Of a DNA stretch of 55,435 nt, positions 36,660 through 53,007 are shown in pieces (positions within the stretch are counted from its first letter, which is position 1; each line of letters starts with the position of its first letter). Under the pieces are notes generated by a model. The model was not told the origin of the DNA. It searched no databases and was given only the letters and a program-made list of their open reading frames with translations. The translations under genes and the position numbers were made by a program. The DNA is taken from positions 1-55,435 of IMG/VR virus record IMGVR_UViG_3300025326_000038; one strand, 5' to 3'. Source of the stretch: a virus. Taxonomy: Duplodnaviria > Caudoviricetes.

Positions 36660-38099
36660 ATGACCGAGACCGGGCACGCGGGCTTCGAAGGCGCCGCCCC
36701 AGTTGTCACGATCGGCGCGGGCAATCCGGAGGCGCTCAAATATGGCAGGCTCTGGGCGCACCCTGAGTACCGCACGGTTGCGCCCGGGGAGCAGCTCGCC
36801 CAAGTGTTCCTCGCCCAGGCGCATCCGAAGCCCGGGGCGGAAGTCCTCGACTTCGGCTGCGGCACCGGCCGCGGCGCGCTCATGCTGGCGCTCCTCGGCG
36901 GGCTCAGGGTCACCATGCTCGATTTCGTGAACAACTGCCTCGACGAGGAGGTGCGCGCCATGCTGACGACGCAGGCGCACGCGCTCCGCTTCCTCAAGGC
37001 GGACCTCGAGCAGAAGCTCCCCGTCGCCGCGCCCTATGGATTCTGCACAGACGTCCTCGAACACATCCCGCCCGCCAAGGTGGACGCCGTCCTCAACAAC
37101 ATCCTGCTGGCCGCGCAACACGTCTTCTTCTCCATCTCCACGGTCGAGGACTCCTGCGGCGCATTGATCGGCGAGCCGCTCCATCTGAGCCTCCATCCCT
37201 TCGCGTGGTGGATGGAGCAATTCCGCAAGCGCGACTGCGTCGTCCACTGGTCGCAGGAGGTGGACGGCGCCTGCCTCTTCTACGTGTCGGCGTGGACCGC
37301 CGGGCCTGCGATCGTCGAGGCGGGGATTCTCAATGTGACCGATGAGCAGATCCGGGCGAACGTCCAGCACAACATCGCGCAGGGCTGGACGCAGGTGCAG
37401 CCGCATCCGACCAATGACATCGAAGTCATGATCCTCGGCGGTGGGCCGTCCATGCCGGCCTTCGAGGAAGAGATCAAGCAGCATCGCGCGCACGGCGTCA
37501 AGCTCATCACGCTCAACGGGGCGTACAATTGGGCGCTGGAGCACGGGCTCACCCCCTCCGCGCAGATCATCGTGGACGCGCGGGCGTTCAATGCGCGGTT
37601 CACCAAGCCGGTCATCGCCGGCTGCAAGTACCTCATCGCCTCCCAGTGCGATCCGGGTGTGTTCGAGGGACTGCCGATCGACCGCACGCTCATCTGGCAC
37701 ACGAGCACGGACCTCATCACGGATCTGCTCAACGCGCAGTACGAGAAGTGGTGGTACGTGCCCGGCGGGTCGACGGTGCTCCTCCGCGCGATCCCGCTGC
37801 TCCGTATGCTCGGGTTCACGCGGTTTCACCTGTACGGCTGCGATAGCTGTCTCGCGGCTGATGACGCGCATCATGCCTACGCACAACCCGAAAACGATGC
37901 AGCGGTTGTCGTGCCGCTCTCCGTCCAGGGCGACCGGATCTTCTACTGCCACCCGTGGATGATCGCGCAGGCAACCGAGCTACAAGATTTACTAAAAGTT
38001 TTGGGGGATGAGATAGAGATCAAGATTCGTGGCGATGGGCTCTTGGCGCATATACTCAATGTAGCCGCAGAGCTAGAGGACAATAAAGCAAATGCGTAA
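36660..38099 (+). CDS. SAM methyltransferase fused to a DUF115/MptE/Maf-like domain
   Basis: VLDFGCGTG and CTDVLEHIP; ILGGGPS, ITLNG, IVD, GGSTV..RA..L...LGF..FHLYG.D. Confidence 0.8.
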   Translation: MTETGHAGFEGAAPVVTIGAGNPEALKYGRLWAHPEYRTVAPGEQLAQVFLAQAHPKPGAEVLDFGCGTGRGALMLALLGGLRVTMLDFVNNCLDEEVRAMLTTQAHALRFLKADLEQKLPVAAPYGFCTDVLEHIPPAKVDAVLNNILLAAQHVFFSISTVEDSCGALIGEPLHLSLHPFAWWMEQFRKRDCVVHWSQEVDGACLFYVSAWTAGPAIVEAGILNVTDEQIRANVQHNIAQGWTQVQPHPTNDIEVMILGGGPSMPAFEEEIKQHRAHGVKLITLNGAYNWALEHGLTPSAQIIVDARAFNARFTKPVIAGCKYLIASQCDPGVFEGLPIDRTLIWHTSTDLITDLLNAQYEKWWYVPGGSTVLLRAIPLLRMLGFTRFHLYGCDSCLAADDAHHAYAQPENDAAVVVPLSVQGDRIFYCHPWMIAQATELQDLLKVLGDEIEIKIRGDGLLAHILNVAAELEDNKANA

Positions 38100-38871
38100 G
38101 GGGTCGTGTCATTCAGAGGAAGCGCGGGCGAAGAACGCCGCAGCCCACCATGGCCGCGTCCCCTGGAACAAAGGCATCAAAATGAATGCTGATCAATGTG
38201 TGAACTTTGGAAAACGCCGTGGTTTCGCTCCCTGGAACAAGGGGCTATCTATGGCGTCTCCATCGGCCGAGACATTGGCAAAGAGAAGTGCAGCGCTTCG
38301 TGGAAAACCAAAGAGCATCGAATGGCGTGCGAAGATCGCCGCAGCTCTTTTAGGGAAAGCAAAATCGTTCGAGGCTCGGATTAGGATGAGTACCGCAAAA
38401 AAGGGGAGACCCGCGCACAACAAAGGGAAAATGATGTCCCCGGAGCAGAGGGCAAATAGCGGCAGGCGCCCAGGCTCCATTCCTTGGAACAAGGGCATTC
38501 CGACAGGGATAAGCCCGATGCGCGGCCCGCGGCCAGAATACAACGGCGTGCGCTTTCGTTCGTCCTATGAAGTGCGATTTGCCAAGGCGTTGGATGCCAG
38601 AGGAATCGGATGGCAATACGAGCCAAAGCGATTTGTCTTAGGCTCATGTTCATACCTTCCTGATTTTTTCGTACCCGAGACTGGAGCATTCTGGGAGATC
38701 AAGGGGTGGCATAACGCCAGCTCGCAAATGAAGGCGAGGCTCTTCCGGGAGTTGTATCCGGAACACCCCTTGATCATTGCAACACACGACGTCATCACCA
38801 TGATGGAGGGATCGACAAATGGCAGTCGGCACGTGGAAGATCTACGCTCGCCTGGGCTAGTCGCGCAGTAA
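38092..38871 (+). CDS. Free-standing endonuclease: PWNKG/NUMOD3-like repeats + PD-(D/E)XK domain
   Basis: (P/A)(W/H)NKG x4; FRS.YE.RFA..LD..W.YEP...YLPDF.....EIKG; AT-richer. Confidence 0.8.
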   Translation: MRKGSCHSEEARAKNAAAHHGRVPWNKGIKMNADQCVNFGKRRGFAPWNKGLSMASPSAETLAKRSAALRGKPKSIEWRAKIAAALLGKAKSFEARIRMSTAKKGRPAHNKGKMMSPEQRANSGRRPGSIPWNKGIPTGISPMRGPRPEYNGVRFRSSYEVRFAKALDARGIGWQYEPKRFVLGSCSYLPDFFVPETGAFWEIKGWHNASSQMKARLFRELYPEHPLIIATHDVITMMEGSTNGSRHVEDLRSPGLVAQ

Positions 38872-46789: not shown

Positions 46790-47242
46790 ATGGCAACACG
46801 CTGCGAGTGCGGATGCGGGCAAACTACGAACAAGGCCATCAAGACCTCGACGCGCCAGGGGTACGTCAAGGGGCAACCCATGCGGTTTGTCCATGGGCAT
46901 CACGCACGCGTCGATGCGGTCATGGCAAAGCAGCGACAGATCGCACGGCGTGGAGGGCCCGCATCCCCCGCGTGGCGCGGCGGCCGTTCGGCCTCCCATG
47001 CGGGCGGATATGTCCGCGTGTATACGGGGAAGCGTGGGGCCCGGACGCTTGAACATCGGGCCATCATGGAGAAAACCCTAGGACGACAGCTTTTGGCGGA
47101 TGAAGTCGTCCACCATCGGAACGGGAACAGAAAAGACAACCGATTGGAGAATCTCGAAGTCCTGACGAATGCCGCGCACGTCAAGCGCCATACAGTGGAG
47201 CGCTGGGCGAAGACTCGGGCCGCCGGTAAACGATCGCTCTAA
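46790..47242 (+). CDS. HNH homing endonuclease (arm B only)
   Basis: CECGCG; WRGG...GYV; EHRAIME..LGR.L...EVVHH.NG...DNRLENL. Confidence 0.9.
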   Translation: MATRCECGCGQTTNKAIKTSTRQGYVKGQPMRFVHGHHARVDAVMAKQRQIARRGGPASPAWRGGRSASHAGGYVRVYTGKRGARTLEHRAIMEKTLGRQLLADEVVHHRNGNRKDNRLENLEVLTNAAHVKRHTVERWAKTRAAGKRSL

Positions 47243-48222: not shown

Positions 48223-48590
48223 TCCCCGTCCCCACGCTCGCCGAGGTCGTCGCCGACGGCACCAAGCTCCCCGATCTGCCGTTCACGGCACTCTGGGCGC
48301 TGCTCCGCGAGGTGGGGCACCTGGAGAAGGAGATCATCGCAGCGATGCTCCCGGCTGCCGGACGAGAGGCAGCCCAGATCGCACCTCAGGACCGCGCGCT
48401 GACCATCGGAGAGGCCGCCGAACGCCTCAGGATCTCTCCGGCAGCCATGACGAAGTGGCTTCGCAAACCGCCCTATAATGCCGCCGTCGTGGTCCGAAGC
48501 CGCACGTGCGTGCGTGTCTCCGCCCAGCGACTGGAGCAGATCCTTCTCGATCGCGGGGCGGGGCCCCGGAGAAAGGCGGCGGCGGGATGA
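48219..48590 (+). CDS. Excisionase-like HTH protein, allele B
   Basis: Homologue of 1984-2358. Confidence 0.7.
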   Translation: MIPVPTLAEVVADGTKLPDLPFTALWALLREVGHLEKEIIAAMLPAAGREAAQIAPQDRALTIGEAAERLRISPAAMTKWLRKPPYNAAVVVRSRTCVRVSAQRLEQILLDRGAGPRRKAAAG

Positions 48591-49675
48591 GGGGGCACGG
48601 GCGGATTTACCATCGTGGAGACAGCTTGTGGATTTCCTGGTATGCCAAGGGGGATCGCCGCGAGGCGGTCAGCACGCTGGTCGGCAAGCCCGCCGGCAGC
48701 GTCACCTGGGACGACGCCATCAAGGCGCTCAAGCGCCGGCTCGAGCAGAAGCGGGAGCAGCTCCTGCGCGGCTCCATCCTGCCGAAGCGCACGGAGCGCC
48801 TGACCGTGACGCAGCTCCTCGCGGAGTACAAGACTCACCGCCTAATCCAGGGCGTCAAGCGCCCGGTGGACTTCGCCTGCACGATCAAAGCGCTCGGCGC
48901 CTGGTGGGGGCATCTCGTGCCCGCCCGGCTGACGACGGAGGACCTCGAGCGGGAGATCCAGGGCAAGCTCACCAAGGGCTTCGCCCGGGGGACCATCGCG
49001 CAGCGCCTCAGCGGGCTCTACGCGGCGCTCCGGTGGGCCAAAGACCGGCTGCCGAGGATCCCGGACAAGCCGCGGATCTCCGTGCCACTGGCACCCAAGG
49101 CGGTGTGGACGCCGGCCGAGGTTGACGCGCTCTGCGCCGAGGCCAAGCCCTGGCTCGCGGACATCGTGCGCTTCGGGCAGCTGACCGGGTGGCGGATCTC
49201 GGAGGTCCTCGACCTCTCCTGGGACCGCGTGGACAGCAAGCGCGGCCTCCTCTTCCTGGACGCGACAAAAACCGACGATCCACGGGTGCGGCCGATCGAG
49301 CCGGCCATGGCGGATCTCCTCGCCCGGCGGACGACGGCCCGCCGGCTGGGCTGCGCCCTGGTGTTCCACGTGGATGGGTTGCCGGTGGGGGATGACCGCT
49401 TCCACCGGGCGTTCCGGGCGGCGTGTGGCCGGGCGAAGCTCGGCGTAAGACGCTTCCACGCCTTCAGGAACACCGCCTATGACATCTTGCTCTTGAACGG
49501 CGTCGACCTCTTCACGGCCATGGAGCTGATCGGGCACAAGTCGCTCAGCTCGGCGCGCCGGTACAGTCGGCAGAACGTCGACCGGATGCGCGGGGCGCTT
49601 GAGCGGGTCGAGGCAGCACGGACGGCGGCCAAGCCGAACAATTCCAGCACAGCAGTCCTGCCCTTCACCCGCTGA
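48587..49675 (+). CDS. int: Tyrosine integrase, allele B
   Basis: Near-identical to 2355-3440; catalytic motifs intact. Confidence 0.93.
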   Translation: MRGHGRIYHRGDSLWISWYAKGDRREAVSTLVGKPAGSVTWDDAIKALKRRLEQKREQLLRGSILPKRTERLTVTQLLAEYKTHRLIQGVKRPVDFACTIKALGAWWGHLVPARLTTEDLEREIQGKLTKGFARGTIAQRLSGLYAALRWAKDRLPRIPDKPRISVPLAPKAVWTPAEVDALCAEAKPWLADIVRFGQLTGWRISEVLDLSWDRVDSKRGLLFLDATKTDDPRVRPIEPAMADLLARRTTARRLGCALVFHVDGLPVGDDRFHRAFRAACGRAKLGVRRFHAFRNTAYDILLLNGVDLFTAMELIGHKSLSSARRYSRQNVDRMRGALERVEAARTAAKPNNSSTAVLPFTR

Positions 49676-49720
49676 ATCAGAGGGTTTGATGCCGAACGCG
49701 GCAATCTGGGGTAGAAGGAC

Positions 49721-49743
49721 GCGCGCCCTAGCAGGAGTCCTGC
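49721..49743 (-). other. Candidate attP core, second copy
   Basis: Identical to 3486-3508. Confidence 0.4.
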
Positions 49744-49879
49744 CAAGGACGCCCCAGCTAGGCAATCAGGTACTTAGGCCCTGGGCCGCCCCTCCCGGAC
49801 GGTCTCTGGTCGCCTCTGTCGGAAGTAACTCTGCTGGACATCTGCCTCACAGCGAGCTGCACAGGCTCCGGTACAGGCT

Positions 49880-50362
49880 GTGACCACCCCCGACATCGGC
49901 TCCCAGCGGCCCAGGCTGTGCCGCTACGACGGCTTTGCTCTCGAGCTGGACACAGTGATCGCCCGGACGTCGACCGACGCCGGCTGGCCCGCGGTGGCCC
50001 TGTGGCGGTGTCGTCTGGGCCATAGCCACCGTGAGGGAGAGCCGGCGGTGGCCACCCGCCGCAAGGCCTCGTGGACGCGGAAGCCCTGCGCCGTGTGCGG
50101 TCAATCTTTGCCCAGAGATCCGCGATTCCACGGCTCCGGCGGCCGCAAGTATTGCTCCGGTCCCTGCACGGCCTTCGTGGCTCGTGCGCGCGGGCTGTGG
50201 CTCTGGCACCACGGGCCGCCGTTCGTGATCGAGGCACAGCCCTGGTACAAGGGCCCGCTCTACGCCGCCGCCACCCTCCCGCCCCTCGACCCGCTCGCCG
50301 GGCGGATGCCGAGGGACTGGGCGGCGGGGTGGGCGAGGGTGCATGGCGAGGGGTCGGAGTGA
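49880..50362 (+). CDS. Zn-binding hypothetical protein, allele B
   Basis: Homologue of 3645-4142. Confidence 0.7.
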   Translation: MTTPDIGSQRPRLCRYDGFALELDTVIARTSTDAGWPAVALWRCRLGHSHREGEPAVATRRKASWTRKPCAVCGQSLPRDPRFHGSGGRKYCSGPCTAFVARARGLWLWHHGPPFVIEAQPWYKGPLYAAATLPPLDPLAGRMPRDWAAGWARVHGEGSE

Positions 50363-52107
50363 CGCCGTATTACCAGGACGCCGCGGTCACGCTCTACCGC
50401 GGGGATGCGCTCGCCATCCTGCGCGAACTGCCCGACGCTGTCGCGCAGACCTGCGTCACCAGTCCACCGTACTGGGGCTTGCGCGACTACGGGACAGTGA
50501 CGTGGGAGGGAGGAGAGGCGGAGTGCGGACATACGAAGGGGAGCGAGCAGAAGCGCACATGGGGACCCGGTAGCACCGGCTCTTCCACGCTGAACGGGCG
50601 ACCCGGCAACGACTCCCATGAGCGAGAAGGGTGGAAGGGTGGCGTATGCGGGAACTGCGGCGCCCGCCGCATCGACACCCAGCTCGGCCTCGAACCCACG
50701 CCAGAAGCCTACGTCGCCGACCTCGTCGCCGTGTTCCGCGAGGTCTGGCGCGTGCTTCGGGATGACGGGACGCTCTGGCTGAATTTAGGGGATAGCTATG
50801 CAGCGGATCGCGGTGGAACGTGTATGCCATCCGAAACTCTCGCGGGAGGCGTGAATGGACAGGGAGAGGCCACAGCCTATTCCGACCCAAAACGCGGGCG
50901 GGTGAGGCATGGAGGTAGACAGGCGCACCGGGACGCGCCGTCCATAGGTCTGAAACATAAAGACCTCGTCGGCATCCCCTGGCGCGTCGCCTTCGCGCTC
51001 CAGCAGCCGTACTACACCGGCAGCATCAAGTGCGTCGAGGATCGGATCTGGCTCGCGGCTATGCTGGACGCCGAGGGATGCCTGTTCATCCACAAGCGCA
51101 AGGCGGGGCAGCACAACGGCCAGGGCTACTACCGGACGAACGACAACTTCGGGCCGGGCGTCGAGATCAGCAACACGTCGCTTGCCTTGGTCGAGCGGAT
51201 CATGGCGCTCGTGGGGAAAGGCTCCATCTGCTCGCAAGGCCCAGACGAGAACCAGCGTAGGAAGCAGCGCATCTATCGCTGGAACCTCCGCACCATCGAG
51301 TGCCGTGACTTTGTCCGCGAGCTGTACCCATACCTCGTCGCCAAGCAACAGCAGGCTCGTATCCTGATCGGTTGCCCATCATCGGGAGAACGAGCCGAGG
51401 CTGCCCACGCTGCGCTGATCGCGCTCCATCGCACCGGGCAGTCAGACGTGGATTTCCCTGCGCCCGCGTCGATGCTAGAGCCTGGGTGGTATCTAAGGTC
51501 GGACATCATATGGGCAAAATGCAACCCGATGCCGGAGAGCGTGACGGATCGGCCGACGAAGGCGCATGAATACCTCTTCCTGCTGGCGAAGCGGGAGCGG
51601 TACTACTACGACGCGGAGGCGATCGCGGAGCGTGTCACGGCATCCACGGTCGAGCGGTTGTCACAGTCAACCCTTGACAAGCAGGCAGGATCCTACCGCG
51701 TGCCGGGCAAGACGAATGGGCCGATGAAGGCAGTAGGGAAAGGCGGCGTCAATGCCTTCCGGGGGCAAGGCCATTTCCGAGACGGCGACAATGGGCCAGC
51801 GAACAGGGAGGGCAGAAACATGAAAGACATCGGCACAGGAGCGACCCGCAACCGCCGCACGGTCTGGGAGATCGCCACGCAGCCATATCCCGAGGCGCAC
51901 TTCGCCACGTTCCCGGTGGACCTCGTCAAGCCGTGCGTGCTCGCGGGGTCGAAGGTCGGCGACACCGTGCTCGACCCCTTCGCCGGGAGCGGGACGACCT
52001 GCTACGTCGCCAAGGAACTCGGGCGCCGGGCCATCGGCATCGACCTCAAGGCGGAGTATCTCGACCTCGCGGCGAAGCGGCTCCGGCAGGAGGTGTTGCC
52101 GCTATGA
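50359..52107 (+). CDS. Beta-class N4-C/N6-A DNA methyltransferase with in-frame LAGLIDADG insertion
   Basis: VTSPPYW (motif IV), WYLRSDIIW, HEYLFLL, HFATFP, VLDPFAGSGTT (motif I). Confidence 0.92.
   Translation: MTPYYQDAAVTLYRGDALAILRELPDAVAQTCVTSPPYWGLRDYGTVTWEGGEAECGHTKGSEQKRTWGPGSTGSSTLNGRPGNDSHEREGWKGGVCGNCGARRIDTQLGLEPTPEAYVADLVAVFREVWRVLRDDGTLWLNLGDSYAADRGGTCMPSETLAGGVNGQGEATAYSDPKRGRVRHGGRQAHRDAPSIGLKHKDLVGIPWRVAFALQQPYYTGSIKCVEDRIWLAAMLDAEGCLFIHKRKAGQHNGQGYYRTNDNFGPGVEISNTSLALVERIMALVGKGSICSQGPDENQRRKQRIYRWNLRTIECRDFVRELYPYLVAKQQQARILIGCPSSGERAEAAHAALIALHRTGQSDVDFPAPASMLEPGWYLRSDIIWAKCNPMPESVTDRPTKAHEYLFLLAKRERYYYDAEAIAERVTASTVERLSQSTLDKQAGSYRVPGKTNGPMKAVGKGGVNAFRGQGHFRDGDNGPANREGRNMKDIGTGATRNRRTVWEIATQPYPEAHFATFPVDLVKPCVLAGSKVGDTVLDPFAGSGTTCYVAKELGRRAIGIDLKAEYLDLAAKRLRQEVLPL
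51007..51480 (+). mobile_element. Single-motif LAGLIDADG endonuclease domain lacking intein motifs
   Basis: WLAAMLDAEGC, VEISNT, YRW, LYPYLVAK..QA; splits VAFALQ / GWYLRSD; boundaries approximate. Confidence 0.82.
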
Positions 52108-52529
52108 CCGTCTTCATCCCCGGCAAGCTCCGCAATCCCCTCAACGGCTCCTGGGGCGGGTGGCGGAAGCACGCGCGACTGGCGAAGGACTGGCGGGAGC
52201 GGACGGCGATGCGGATCTTCCTAGAGAGTCGGACAGCATGTCGAGGCCCAATCTGCCGCGAGACGCCGAAGACGATCACCTTCACCGCGCACGTCGGCGC
52301 CGGCTGGGACGATGACAACCTGCCCGCGGCCATCAAGCCGATTCGGGACGCACTGGTGGGCACCGTCATCCACTCAGACGCGCCGAACAGCGGGCACACC
52401 TTCGTCTATCGGCAAGTCATCGACCGCAAACACCGCGGCGTCGAGATCGCCAGCGTCCCCTCCCCGACCGTCGGCGGCCACCCGATCTCGTGGGCGACGG
52501 CGCGGCGGATCAGCGAGGATGGGCCGTGA
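52104..52529 (+). CDS. RusA-like resolvase
   Basis: DDDNL...IKPIRDAL (DxDN..K..D) motif. Confidence 0.65.
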   Translation: MTVFIPGKLRNPLNGSWGGWRKHARLAKDWRERTAMRIFLESRTACRGPICRETPKTITFTAHVGAGWDDDNLPAAIKPIRDALVGTVIHSDAPNSGHTFVYRQVIDRKHRGVEIASVPSPTVGGHPISWATARRISEDGP

Positions 52530-52582
52530 GCAGCTATGCATCGCTAGGGAAGACGTCACGACGTCGGAGTGAAGGCAGTCCG

Positions 52583-52813
52583 ATGAAATGCCCCTATTGC
52601 AAACAGAGAGGGCTACGAGTAATGGATGTTCGCTTGACCGTCGCTGGTTATCGTCGGCGACGTCGGGAATGCAGCCATTGCGGCCGACGGGTCACGACAC
52701 GAGAAAGCATCAGCTTGGTTATCCCTTGTGAGCATTTCCGACAATCGCTGATGAGGCACCGGTGCTGCTTGGATTGCAAAGCATCGCTCGGTTTCGAGTT
52801 TATTAAGCCGTGA
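52583..52813 (+). CDS. NrdR N-terminal-like Zn-ribbon protein
   Basis: MKCPYC....V.D.R.....RRRRECSHCG.R.TT.E. Confidence 0.75.
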   Translation: MKCPYCKQRGLRVMDVRLTVAGYRRRRRECSHCGRRVTTRESISLVIPCEHFRQSLMRHRCCLDCKASLGFEFIKP

Positions 52814-53007
52814 CCGTCTGCCCGAATAATCTGTCGGACGCCACGCGCTATTTCCGGCGCCTATTCCTCATGCGCCATCTGGCGGCGGCCAAGACGATCA
52901 CCGCGACCGCCACGCAACTCGGGACGCAGCGCTCCTACATAAGCCGACTCAACCGGCAACTGGGCGTCGAAGGCCCCCGATCTTCGAAGCGCCCAAAACG
53001 GACATGA
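52810..53007 (+). CDS. Fis-type HTH protein, allele B
   Basis: Homologue of 7636-7833. Confidence 0.65.
   Translation: MTVCPNNLSDATRYFRRLFLMRHLAAAKTITATATQLGTQRSYISRLNRQLGVEGPRSSKRPKRT

Follow-up and report, generated by a model that had tools for sequence, protein, structure and literature searches.

A single-motif LAGLIDADG endonuclease domain held in frame within a phage DNA methyltransferase, with no splicing signals found

For a homing endonuclease gene to sit inside a protein-coding gene without loss of the host protein, an intron or an intein is generally held to be necessary. A DNA methyltransferase gene on the IMG/VR virus record IMGVR_UViG_3300025326_000038 (linear, 55,435 bases, ~73% complete; the whole of this stretch is called the window below) raises the question of how such a gene can carry a LAGLIDADG domain when neither is apparent. 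A first-pass annotation, made from the letters alone, had pointed to the domain, suggested that it is either a homing element that does without splicing and is tolerated as a loop fusion or part of a methylase-nuclease chimera, and proposed as checks a scan with hidden Markov models (HMMs), a structure prediction and a survey of the insert across homologues. We found that the insert is a complete single-motif LAGLIDADG domain of the I-CreI type, with the catalytic Glu and Lys in place, and that it is not a singular oddity but one of a large conserved family carried mostly by uncultured phages. The parts of the gene that bear on the argument are as follows.

50359..52107, + strand: the whole gene, 582 amino acids (aa; P0001), with a GTG start; beta-class N4/N6 DNA methyltransferase with an internal LAGLIDADG domain
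50359..51003, + strand: N-terminal methyltransferase part, ending ...IPWRVAFALQ and holding motif IV SPPY
50461-50472, + strand: motif IV SPPY (residues 35-38); S35, P36, P37 and Y38 are nearly invariant in 108 aligned homologues
51004..51483, + strand: in-frame insert QPYYTG...SMLEP, 160 codons; single-motif I-CreI-type LAGLIDADG endonuclease domain
51049-51078, + strand: LAGLIDADG motif WLAAMLDAEG (residues 231-240), from the HMMER alignment to I-CreI chains
51073-51075, + strand: codon of E239, which aligns with the catalytic Asp20 of I-CreI and is followed by G240
51343..51345, + strand: codon of K329, which aligns with Lys98 of I-CreI
51484..52107, + strand: C-terminal methyltransferase part, GWYLRSDIIW..NPMPESVTDRP onward, with a stretch like a target recognition domain (TRD) and motif I
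Residues 426-495: the variable TRD-like stretch of the methylase
51973-51993, + strand: motif I DPFAGSG (residues 539-545), which like motif IV hardly varies across the 108 homologues

The host protein is recognised by the Pfam family N6_N4_Mtase (PF01555), which matches it in two separated stretches (E 1.5e-43), and by Foldseek, in which the full-length model matched CcrM (6pbd), N4CMT (8s9m), M.PvuII (1boo), MboIIA and M.RsrI. Motif IV precedes motif I, the order of beta-class methyltransferases, the fold is Rossmann-like, and the homologues share the start M-x-PYYQD; the SPPY form of motif IV may point to specificity for N4-cytosine. The split of the Pfam match, together with the profile and fold matches given below, bears out the claim that a LAGLIDADG domain lies in frame inside the enzyme.

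We placed the boundaries of the insert by nucleotide and protein alignment to an insert-less relative, P0075 (gene L088:6001-7725). The flanks are the helix ...WRVAFALQ before and the strand GWYLRSDIIW... after, and between them the insert takes the place of the residues 'AD' in the loop ALQ-AD-GWYLR, for a net gain of 158 aa. The alignment thus agrees with the first-pass view that a segment of the form ALQ-xx-GWYLRSDIIW had been split, and the position proposed for the insert, about 51007-51480, was right to within a codon. In both the full-length and the domain models, the two terminal residues of the insert pair in a small bridge, as expected for a domain plugged into a loop. GC content at third codon positions (GC3) is 0.82 in the insert and 0.80 in the whole gene. 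The codons just downstream had been described as richer in AT, and codons 376-392 do show a small dip (GC3 0.71); as a peculiarity of this place the remark did not stand, since deeper dips occur elsewhere. The deepest of the gene, 0.40, falls in codons 141-160 (window 50779-50838), spanning LNLGDSYAADRGG and the start of a variable loop modelled with low confidence.

Could the segment be removed after all, by an intein-like or RNA mechanism that has escaped recognition? At its start the insert has Q216 and P217 and at its end E374-P375, followed by G376. Neither in the window nor in the 119 insert-bearing rows of the family alignment did we find a Cys, Ser or Thr nucleophile at either junction or a His-Asn pair, just as had been stated for the window alone; conserved instead are P217 (116 of the 119 rows), P375 (101 of 119) and G376 (120/120 rows). 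No Hint or intein family of Pfam matched the methylase protein at E<=1. Residues 4-146 of the insert's 160 align to I-CreI-type chains, so that a single LAGLIDADG fold fills the segment and leaves no room for a Hint domain, and the inteins that appear in the fold list match through their endonuclease domains only. The reported lack of a group I core held up as well: Rfam, searched over 49500-53000 with permissive filters and introns included, gave no match at E<=1. Finally, codon comparison showed the whole 474 nucleotides (nt) evolving as in-frame coding sequence. Each of these results speaks against cryptic splicing, and we regard it as extremely improbable.

What, then, is the insert? I-CreI, I-MsoI and I-CvuI are homodimeric single-motif homing endonucleases of group I introns, made as free-standing proteins. 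A profile of 18 sequences, made from the insert together with five of its inserted and twelve of its small free-standing relatives, matched these enzymes in the PDB with E values of 4e-15 (single-chain I-CreI), 5.6e-13 (I-MsoI), 6e-9 (I-CvuI) and 2.5e-7 (I-CreI). Searched as a single sequence with phmmer, the insert had given sub-significant matches to I-OnuI only (E 0.07-1.6), a result that the profile supersedes, as it does the sub-threshold Pfam match given below. No NCBIfam family covers the insert, and it matches PHROG 5046, a 161-position family of small phage proteins (E 1.5e-18). In addition to the alignment of E239 with the catalytic acid of I-CreI, YPYLVAKQQQAR around K329 aligns with PFLKLKQKQAN of that enzyme.

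The predicted structure agrees with the profile. AlphaFold2 modelled the isolated domain with a predicted local distance difference test (pLDDT) score of 94.5, and within the full-length model the insert scores 91-98. In both models DSSP assigns the order alpha-beta-beta-alpha-beta-beta-alpha plus two helices. A VIA-align search placed an I-CreI variant first (Z 14.3, root-mean-square deviation 2.3 A, 125 residues aligned), followed by I-CvuI (14.1) and I-MsoI (13.8): homodimeric single-motif enzymes head the list, and unrelated rows score Z under 4.5. The WhiA protein is among the fold matches (Z 8.5), and Foldseek with the full-length model also returned a LAGLIDADG match (E about 3e-7).

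Two copies of the domain are predicted to pair. The dimer score was 0.74 in comparison with 0.01 for the best of three controls; a score of 0.74 is reached by 20/30 proteins solved as same-chain pairs and by 1/23 solved as single chains. Contacts are 100% the same between the three runs, the partner pLDDT is >= 85, and the predicted interface is the LAGLIDADG helix (insert residues 11-24), with the motif at its centre. The prediction was made on the isolated domain, as a full-length pair is above the size limit, and the score may reflect mere likeness to solved I-CreI dimers.

When the whole protein was searched against the database, an insert at the same site and of nearly fixed length was present in 118 of the top 119 homologues, a proportion to be read knowing that insert-bearing proteins score higher against an insert-bearing query. 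The spacing between anchors across the site is almost always 169-183 residues in these homologues vs 15 in P0075. A search with the insert alone against 1.84 billion representatives clustered at 50% identity gave 917 proteins at E<=1e-3. The best 149 of the 917, P0005 aside, were sorted by architecture using local HMMs for each methylase half and for the insert.

103/149: insert at the same methylase site (site A), fragments included
6/149: insert at a second site ~38 aa downstream (site B), after ...HEQIFLFSK
21/149: free-standing proteins of about 110-245 aa
18/149: two-domain proteins of about 300-500 aa, built like the monomeric LAGLIDADG enzymes
1/149: unmatched

The site-B proteins (P0208, P0210, P0224, P0228, P0230 and P0238) have the domain motif WLALLIDxEGC (P0224 residues about 190-291), inserted after ...HEQIFLF(S/A)K and before (R/P)YFFDA, and their first site is empty, reading AFALRA(N/D)GWVLRQE. 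There is also a variant sub-lineage at the first site, with 33 representatives (e.g. P0199, P0221 and P0226) and the locus L073 (5854 onward, a 598-aa open reading frame, ORF); its match to the insert profile ends after the first ~125 positions, and it has a different tail ~50 aa longer and forms its own cluster in the domain tree.

Outside uncultured phages few copies of the insert were found. Among the cultured phages of INPHARED it matched only 8 records, all with free-standing ORFs at 23-31% identity, and of the 244 INPHARED records matched by the methylase none was covered to >=80%, so that no insert-bearing fusion was found there. A single-sequence scan of GTDB genomes, which depends on a few exact peptide patterns, found no insert, and a scan with an alignment, also limited by patterns, found one locus, in a metagenome-assembled genome of Neomarinimicrobiota. 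In IMG/VR the insert alone retrieved 4 loci, and among the loci fetched with two methylases only L073 bears an insert, in the variant form. The window stretch itself occurs in contigs of 20 metagenome runs from soil, groundwater and sediment (17 studies), many of which may be the source of the window DNA; contigs of four runs cover the insert-bearing form, and there were no RNA runs among the listed sequencing runs that hold the stretch.

How is the insert maintained? Comparing codons between the window and the IMG/VR genes L083, L084 and L085, we obtained the following proportions of synonymous (pS) and nonsynonymous (pN) differences.

Insert: pS 0.53-0.63, pN 0.08-0.13
N core: pS 0.56-0.75, pN 0.24-0.36
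C3 (C-terminal core): pS 0.40-0.48, pN 0.30-0.32

The insert is therefore under stronger purifying selection than the methylase around it, and its higher protein identity does not come from recent transfer among these four genes. Position 239 carries the catalytic acid (E or D) in 184/185 site-A, 31/31 variant, 6/6 site-B and 20/20 free-standing copies, and the Gly after it is kept in all 185 site-A copies; K329 is kept in every copy of six groups (185/185, 31/31, 6/6, 20/20, 15/15 and 17/17). About 60 further positions of the insert are nearly invariant. These data bear on the thought that the segment is an inert passenger, a dead endonuclease remnant that stays open only because a frameshift would destroy the methylase. 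As that account would have it, the insert has no start or stop codon that it could use by itself and is read through in the frame of the methylase, but a passenger would drift, whereas the insert's pN is a third to half of the methylase core's at equal pS and the catalytic Glu and Lys have remained in place. We consider a passive remnant very improbable.

Conservation also hints at what the domain may bind. The polar beta-strand residues R259, N272, T273, R301, Q303, R307, N309 and R311, which the fold suggests as DNA contacts, are 71-100% kept in site-A copies, and the set differs in groups other than site A. The TRD-like regions of the same methylases have a mean identity of only 17% to that of the window. 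The likely DNA-contact surface thus appears to track the insertion site and not the specificity of the methylase.

The unoccupied form of the insertion site is well conserved. Insert-less loci have exactly two residues at the site in 153/154, inside a very conserved peptide, and WRVAFALQADGWYLRQDII stands at the empty site in 52/153 loci; judged from its sequence, a site so conserved would be the sort of target that homing endonucleases favour. Empty and filled forms occur together: in two soil metagenomes that hold the window phage, contigs of other methylases match up to 51003 and then read GCG GAC GGC TGG..., an empty allele. Dyad symmetry gives no unique peak at the empty site: one of 5.2 of 11 pairs is centred in the Asp codon (background 2.8, 95th percentile 5), and an equal peak lies 7.5 nt upstream. 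As a candidate empty allele of the window phage itself, we considered a joint 51003>51523 and loose ends after 51003; these were rejected, as they come from other methylase genes that match with 90-95% likeness over short conserved stretches.

The survey across homologues found both states in a patchy distribution, and we followed their history on trees of 335 complete methylases, of which 175 have the insert, 155 lack it and 5 carry a site-B insert. The trees rest on conserved columns outside the insert and the TRD-like stretch, and the counts below are minimum numbers of state changes (gain or loss of the insert) on the tree with all forks, with forks of support under 90 collapsed and with forks of support under 95 collapsed, respectively.

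Core (N + C) tree: 51, 36 and 17
Core tree with shuffled labels (mean): 108, 72 and 40
N half only: 65, 24 and 10
C half only: 61, 28 and 9

Fifteen small clades (<=10 tips, support >=95) mix both states. The window gene offers the clearest example. Its C-terminal half has its closest relative in the insert-less P0075, to which it is 86% identical over conserved columns, and falls with support 99 in a group with P0075, L088 and L095, none of which has the insert; its TRD-like stretch is 81% identical to that of P0075. Its insert, on the other hand, shares 88% identity with the insert of P0008, a protein whose C3 part reaches only 55%. IQ-TREE, run on a subset of 33 genes picked to include mixed clades, placed the window with two insert-less genes (support 98), and constraining the window core to join the seven genes with the nearest inserts, a group named after the trees had been seen, cost 85.5 log-likelihood units (approximately unbiased test, p-AU 0.0014). 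We read the window gene as a mosaic of at least three histories. A clean transfer of the insert alone into a P0075-like gene is not supported, as the tree of the N half does not place the window with P0075. Looking for a co-conversion footprint in the form of shared synonymous codons beside the junction, we found none evident in the three alleles examined, out of six.

Taken together, these results favour, with moderate confidence, a non-splicing homing endonuclease domain that acts from inside the methylase fusion. Under this account the insert would never be spliced out and would be retained in the mature enzyme, which presumably tolerates the extra domain, as the catalytic motifs of the methylase are kept. 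Two fusion proteins would pair via their LAGLIDADG helices to form the nuclease, the nuclease would cut the uninterrupted allele (...AFALQ-AD-GWYLR...) of co-infecting phages, and repair from the insert-bearing copy would spread the element, which amounts to homing without splicing. That the same gene family harbours a further endonuclease without splicing, the antisense HNH gene of P0075 described below, points the same way. The first of the two original suggestions is supported by the fold, the lack of splice signals, the kept catalytic residues and the patchy distribution, while nuclease activity, homing and retention in the protein are steps that we infer.

Several observations weigh against homing. 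The element substitutes for 'AD', so the insertion is not clean, and Pfam LAGLIDADG_3 stays below threshold for the insert (E 0.19, 12.5 bits vs a cutoff of 22.5). No recent transfer and no near-identical insert in divergent genes were found among the genes compared, where synonymous sites are saturated in insert and flanks alike and so are uninformative on age. Decayed copies are almost nil, 1/185 lacking the catalytic acid; the usual cycle of gain, decay and loss of selfish endonucleases would lead one to expect more of them, and the pattern also fits a domain useful to its host. Insert and core identities correlate (r 0.55 over 11,781 pairs), which means that much of the inheritance is vertical. 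In the tree of the N half the window does not join P0075 (69%), its nearest relative there being P0121 (73%) with weak support, and since the gene is a mosaic, the window's own case could have arisen through ordinary recombination at the conserved motifs on either side, with no nuclease involved. The choice of the 33 genes and of the constrained group, made as described above, counts on the same side.

Much of this would also follow if the domain had been domesticated, the LAGLIDADG fold, an endonuclease in origin, now serving the methylase as a dimerisation module or DNA clamp under selection on the phage, and the patchiness arising via mosaicism and occasional loss. Such a role would suit the single site and nearly fixed length in the best homologues, a pN lower than in the methylase core, the almost complete lack of decayed copies, the correlation of insert and core identities, the predicted homodimer via the LAGLIDADG helix (subject to the same reservation about solved I-CreI dimers) and a GC3 equal to that of the gene. 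Several DNA-bound structures of beta-class methylases are multi-chain (6pbd chains A/B, 8urk A/D), and LAGLIDADG folds do get co-opted, as the match to WhiA recalls. Against it, 155 of the 335 methylases, including the window's nearest relatives over the C half, do without the insert and have the two-residue loop intact, and at least 9-17 well-supported changes of state are needed on the trees. Binding or dimerisation would need no catalytic Glu and Lys, yet the fusions keep both as strictly as the free-standing and two-domain endonucleases do; WhiA and other co-opted proteins of this fold are reported to have lost these residues. The constancy of the likely DNA-contact residues next to differing TRD-like regions, and the related domains at a second site of the same enzyme family, likewise count against it. 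Domestication is somewhat unlikely in our estimate, and it is not mutually exclusive with homing.

An account that joins the two would have splice-free endonucleases that dimerise methylases and are kept active as the fusion also serves the phage, for instance by cutting the uninterrupted allele of competitors (marker exclusion). We think this unlikely; if true, selfish spread and host benefit would coincide. The second original suggestion, a methylase-nuclease chimera with a new function, is left neither stronger nor weaker by these results. A further account, a weapon with two activities that attacks competing phages or host DNA by marker exclusion or in a restriction-like manner while the methylase protects or guides, would account for the joint conservation of nuclease residues and methylase motifs in one polypeptide. 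The putative nuclease surface is constant, however, while the TRD-like regions vary, and there is no conserved partner gene adjacent to the methylase, the corresponding locus of a related phage (L165) holding other genes. LAGLIDADG enzymes have long recognition sites and are not known in restriction-modification systems. The report on Taj_79, a mycobacteriophage methylase compared below, makes the same two points and raises the idea of restriction and modification in one peptide, which its authors thought unlikely (PMC9957025). In our judgement such a weapon is improbable.

The surroundings of the gene are those of a phage: the record encodes a terminase, a capsid protein, a DnaB-type helicase and an integrase (48506-49675). 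The methylase is preceded by one further feature.

49880..50362, + strand: upstream ORF of 160 aa with no Pfam family, its stop overlapping the methylase start in GTGA

Comparing L165 with window 48989-52463, we found two genes in common: the integrase, at 80-85% aa identity, and the gene that follows the methylase, at 61-85%. The ~2.9 kb that separate these two in L165 hold other genes and no methylase homologue, so the methylase occupies a variable accessory slot. Within the methylase, a Cys/His stretch ECGH...CGNCG (window 50524-50661, residues 56-101) lies between motif IV and the LGLEPTPE helix; its counterpart in P0075 is CDH...CGKCG, residues 72-90 within it are modelled with low confidence (pLDDT under 50), and the stretch may be a zinc ribbon. 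Elsewhere on the record are an HNH_3 endonuclease ORF (46790-47242, + strand), an ORF with a NUMOD3 motif and a weak match to phage endonuclease I (38092-38871, + strand), an S-adenosylmethionine-dependent methyltransferase fused to an MptE-like domain (36660-38099, + strand) and, two genes beyond the methylase, a small ORF whose N-terminal domain is an NrdR-like zinc ribbon (52580-52813, + strand; PF22811, E 5e-11).

The family is of use beyond this one phage. Its size (hundreds of 50%-identity clusters), uniform length, conservation and the co-occurrence of empty and filled alleles in the same soils make it a good experimental system for asking whether an internal LAGLIDADG domain cuts, whether it homes into empty alleles and how it affects the methylase. 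Should they prove active, the domains would supply a new set of compact nucleases of the I-CreI type able to accept fusion at both termini.

How does the insert compare with systems already known? Among the papers listed by full-text searches, whose coverage leaves subscription journals aside, none was seen to describe this insertion site or family. With I-CreI, I-MsoI and I-CvuI the insert shares its size (~160 aa), its fold (Z 13.4-14.3), the catalytic Asp/Glu and Lys and the predicted helix dimer. Those enzymes are intron-encoded and free-standing, whereas the insert is an internal domain with no start or stop of its own, and identity to them is 12-16%. Fusions of LAGLIDADG endonucleases to host proteins are also represented in the PDB, under titles such as 'Ribosomal protein 3/homing endonuclease-like protein fusion'. 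In the rps3 fusions the end of the host gene is reported to be duplicated, so that they would involve no true internal loop insertion, and they encode two-domain monomeric enzymes in an organelle rps3 host. The likeness is that a LAGLIDADG coding sequence of the I-OnuI/I-LtrI type is fused in frame to a host gene without an intein in fungal mitochondria (Gibb and Hausner 2005, as cited in PMC7902536).

Closer in setting are the ShiLan domain and the Pacc40 insertion of actinophage methylases, in which an HNH endonuclease lies hidden out of frame (Arsenault et al. 2025, Genes 16:178, PMC11855218). Here too there is a homing-type endonuclease gene in a phage methylase ORF that is read through, with no intron or intein features and a disjoint distribution. 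The endonuclease there lies in another frame and the methylase carries a meaningless loop, whereas in the window the methylase frame itself encodes the folded endonuclease. P0075 holds a second in-frame insertion, 169 aa between ...WEIATTPF and HFAVFP, that is of low complexity in the methylase frame; on the opposite strand it encodes a 167-aa HNH endonuclease (L088 7001-7504, - strand; Pfam HNH E 1.6e-6), and it is thus ShiLan-like, but antisense.

The nearest parallel is Taj_79, whose 139-aa non-intein LAGLIDADG domain occurs in nine methylases of cluster-F mycobacteriophages (Gosselin et al. 2023, Genes 14:288, PMC9957025). Both it and the insert are in-frame, sense-strand, non-intein LAGLIDADG domains (about 140-160 aa) in an orphan phage methylase of the N6_N4 type, and in both the insert is predicted to form a domain of its own that leaves the methylase fold intact. 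The positions differ: in Taj_79 the motif (residues 62-71) directly follows the DPPY motif IV, whereas in the window it stands at 231-240, after AFALQ. The only parts that BLASTP aligns are the regions around motifs IV and I and 22 residues of the LAGLIDADG helix, and the Taj domain is not among the 8 phage records matched by our insert. The nine copies are reported to form one clan with no strong sign of transfer (PMC9957025), whereas the window family is patchy and far larger. From their sequences we regard Taj_79 as a parallel case in a distantly related methylase and not as the same insertion. The family described here is accordingly a new, large case of a recently recognised kind, and not a new kind. 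Together with Taj_79 and the ShiLan domain, it suggests a third way beside intron and intein, in which a permissive loop harbours the element and the protein retains it.

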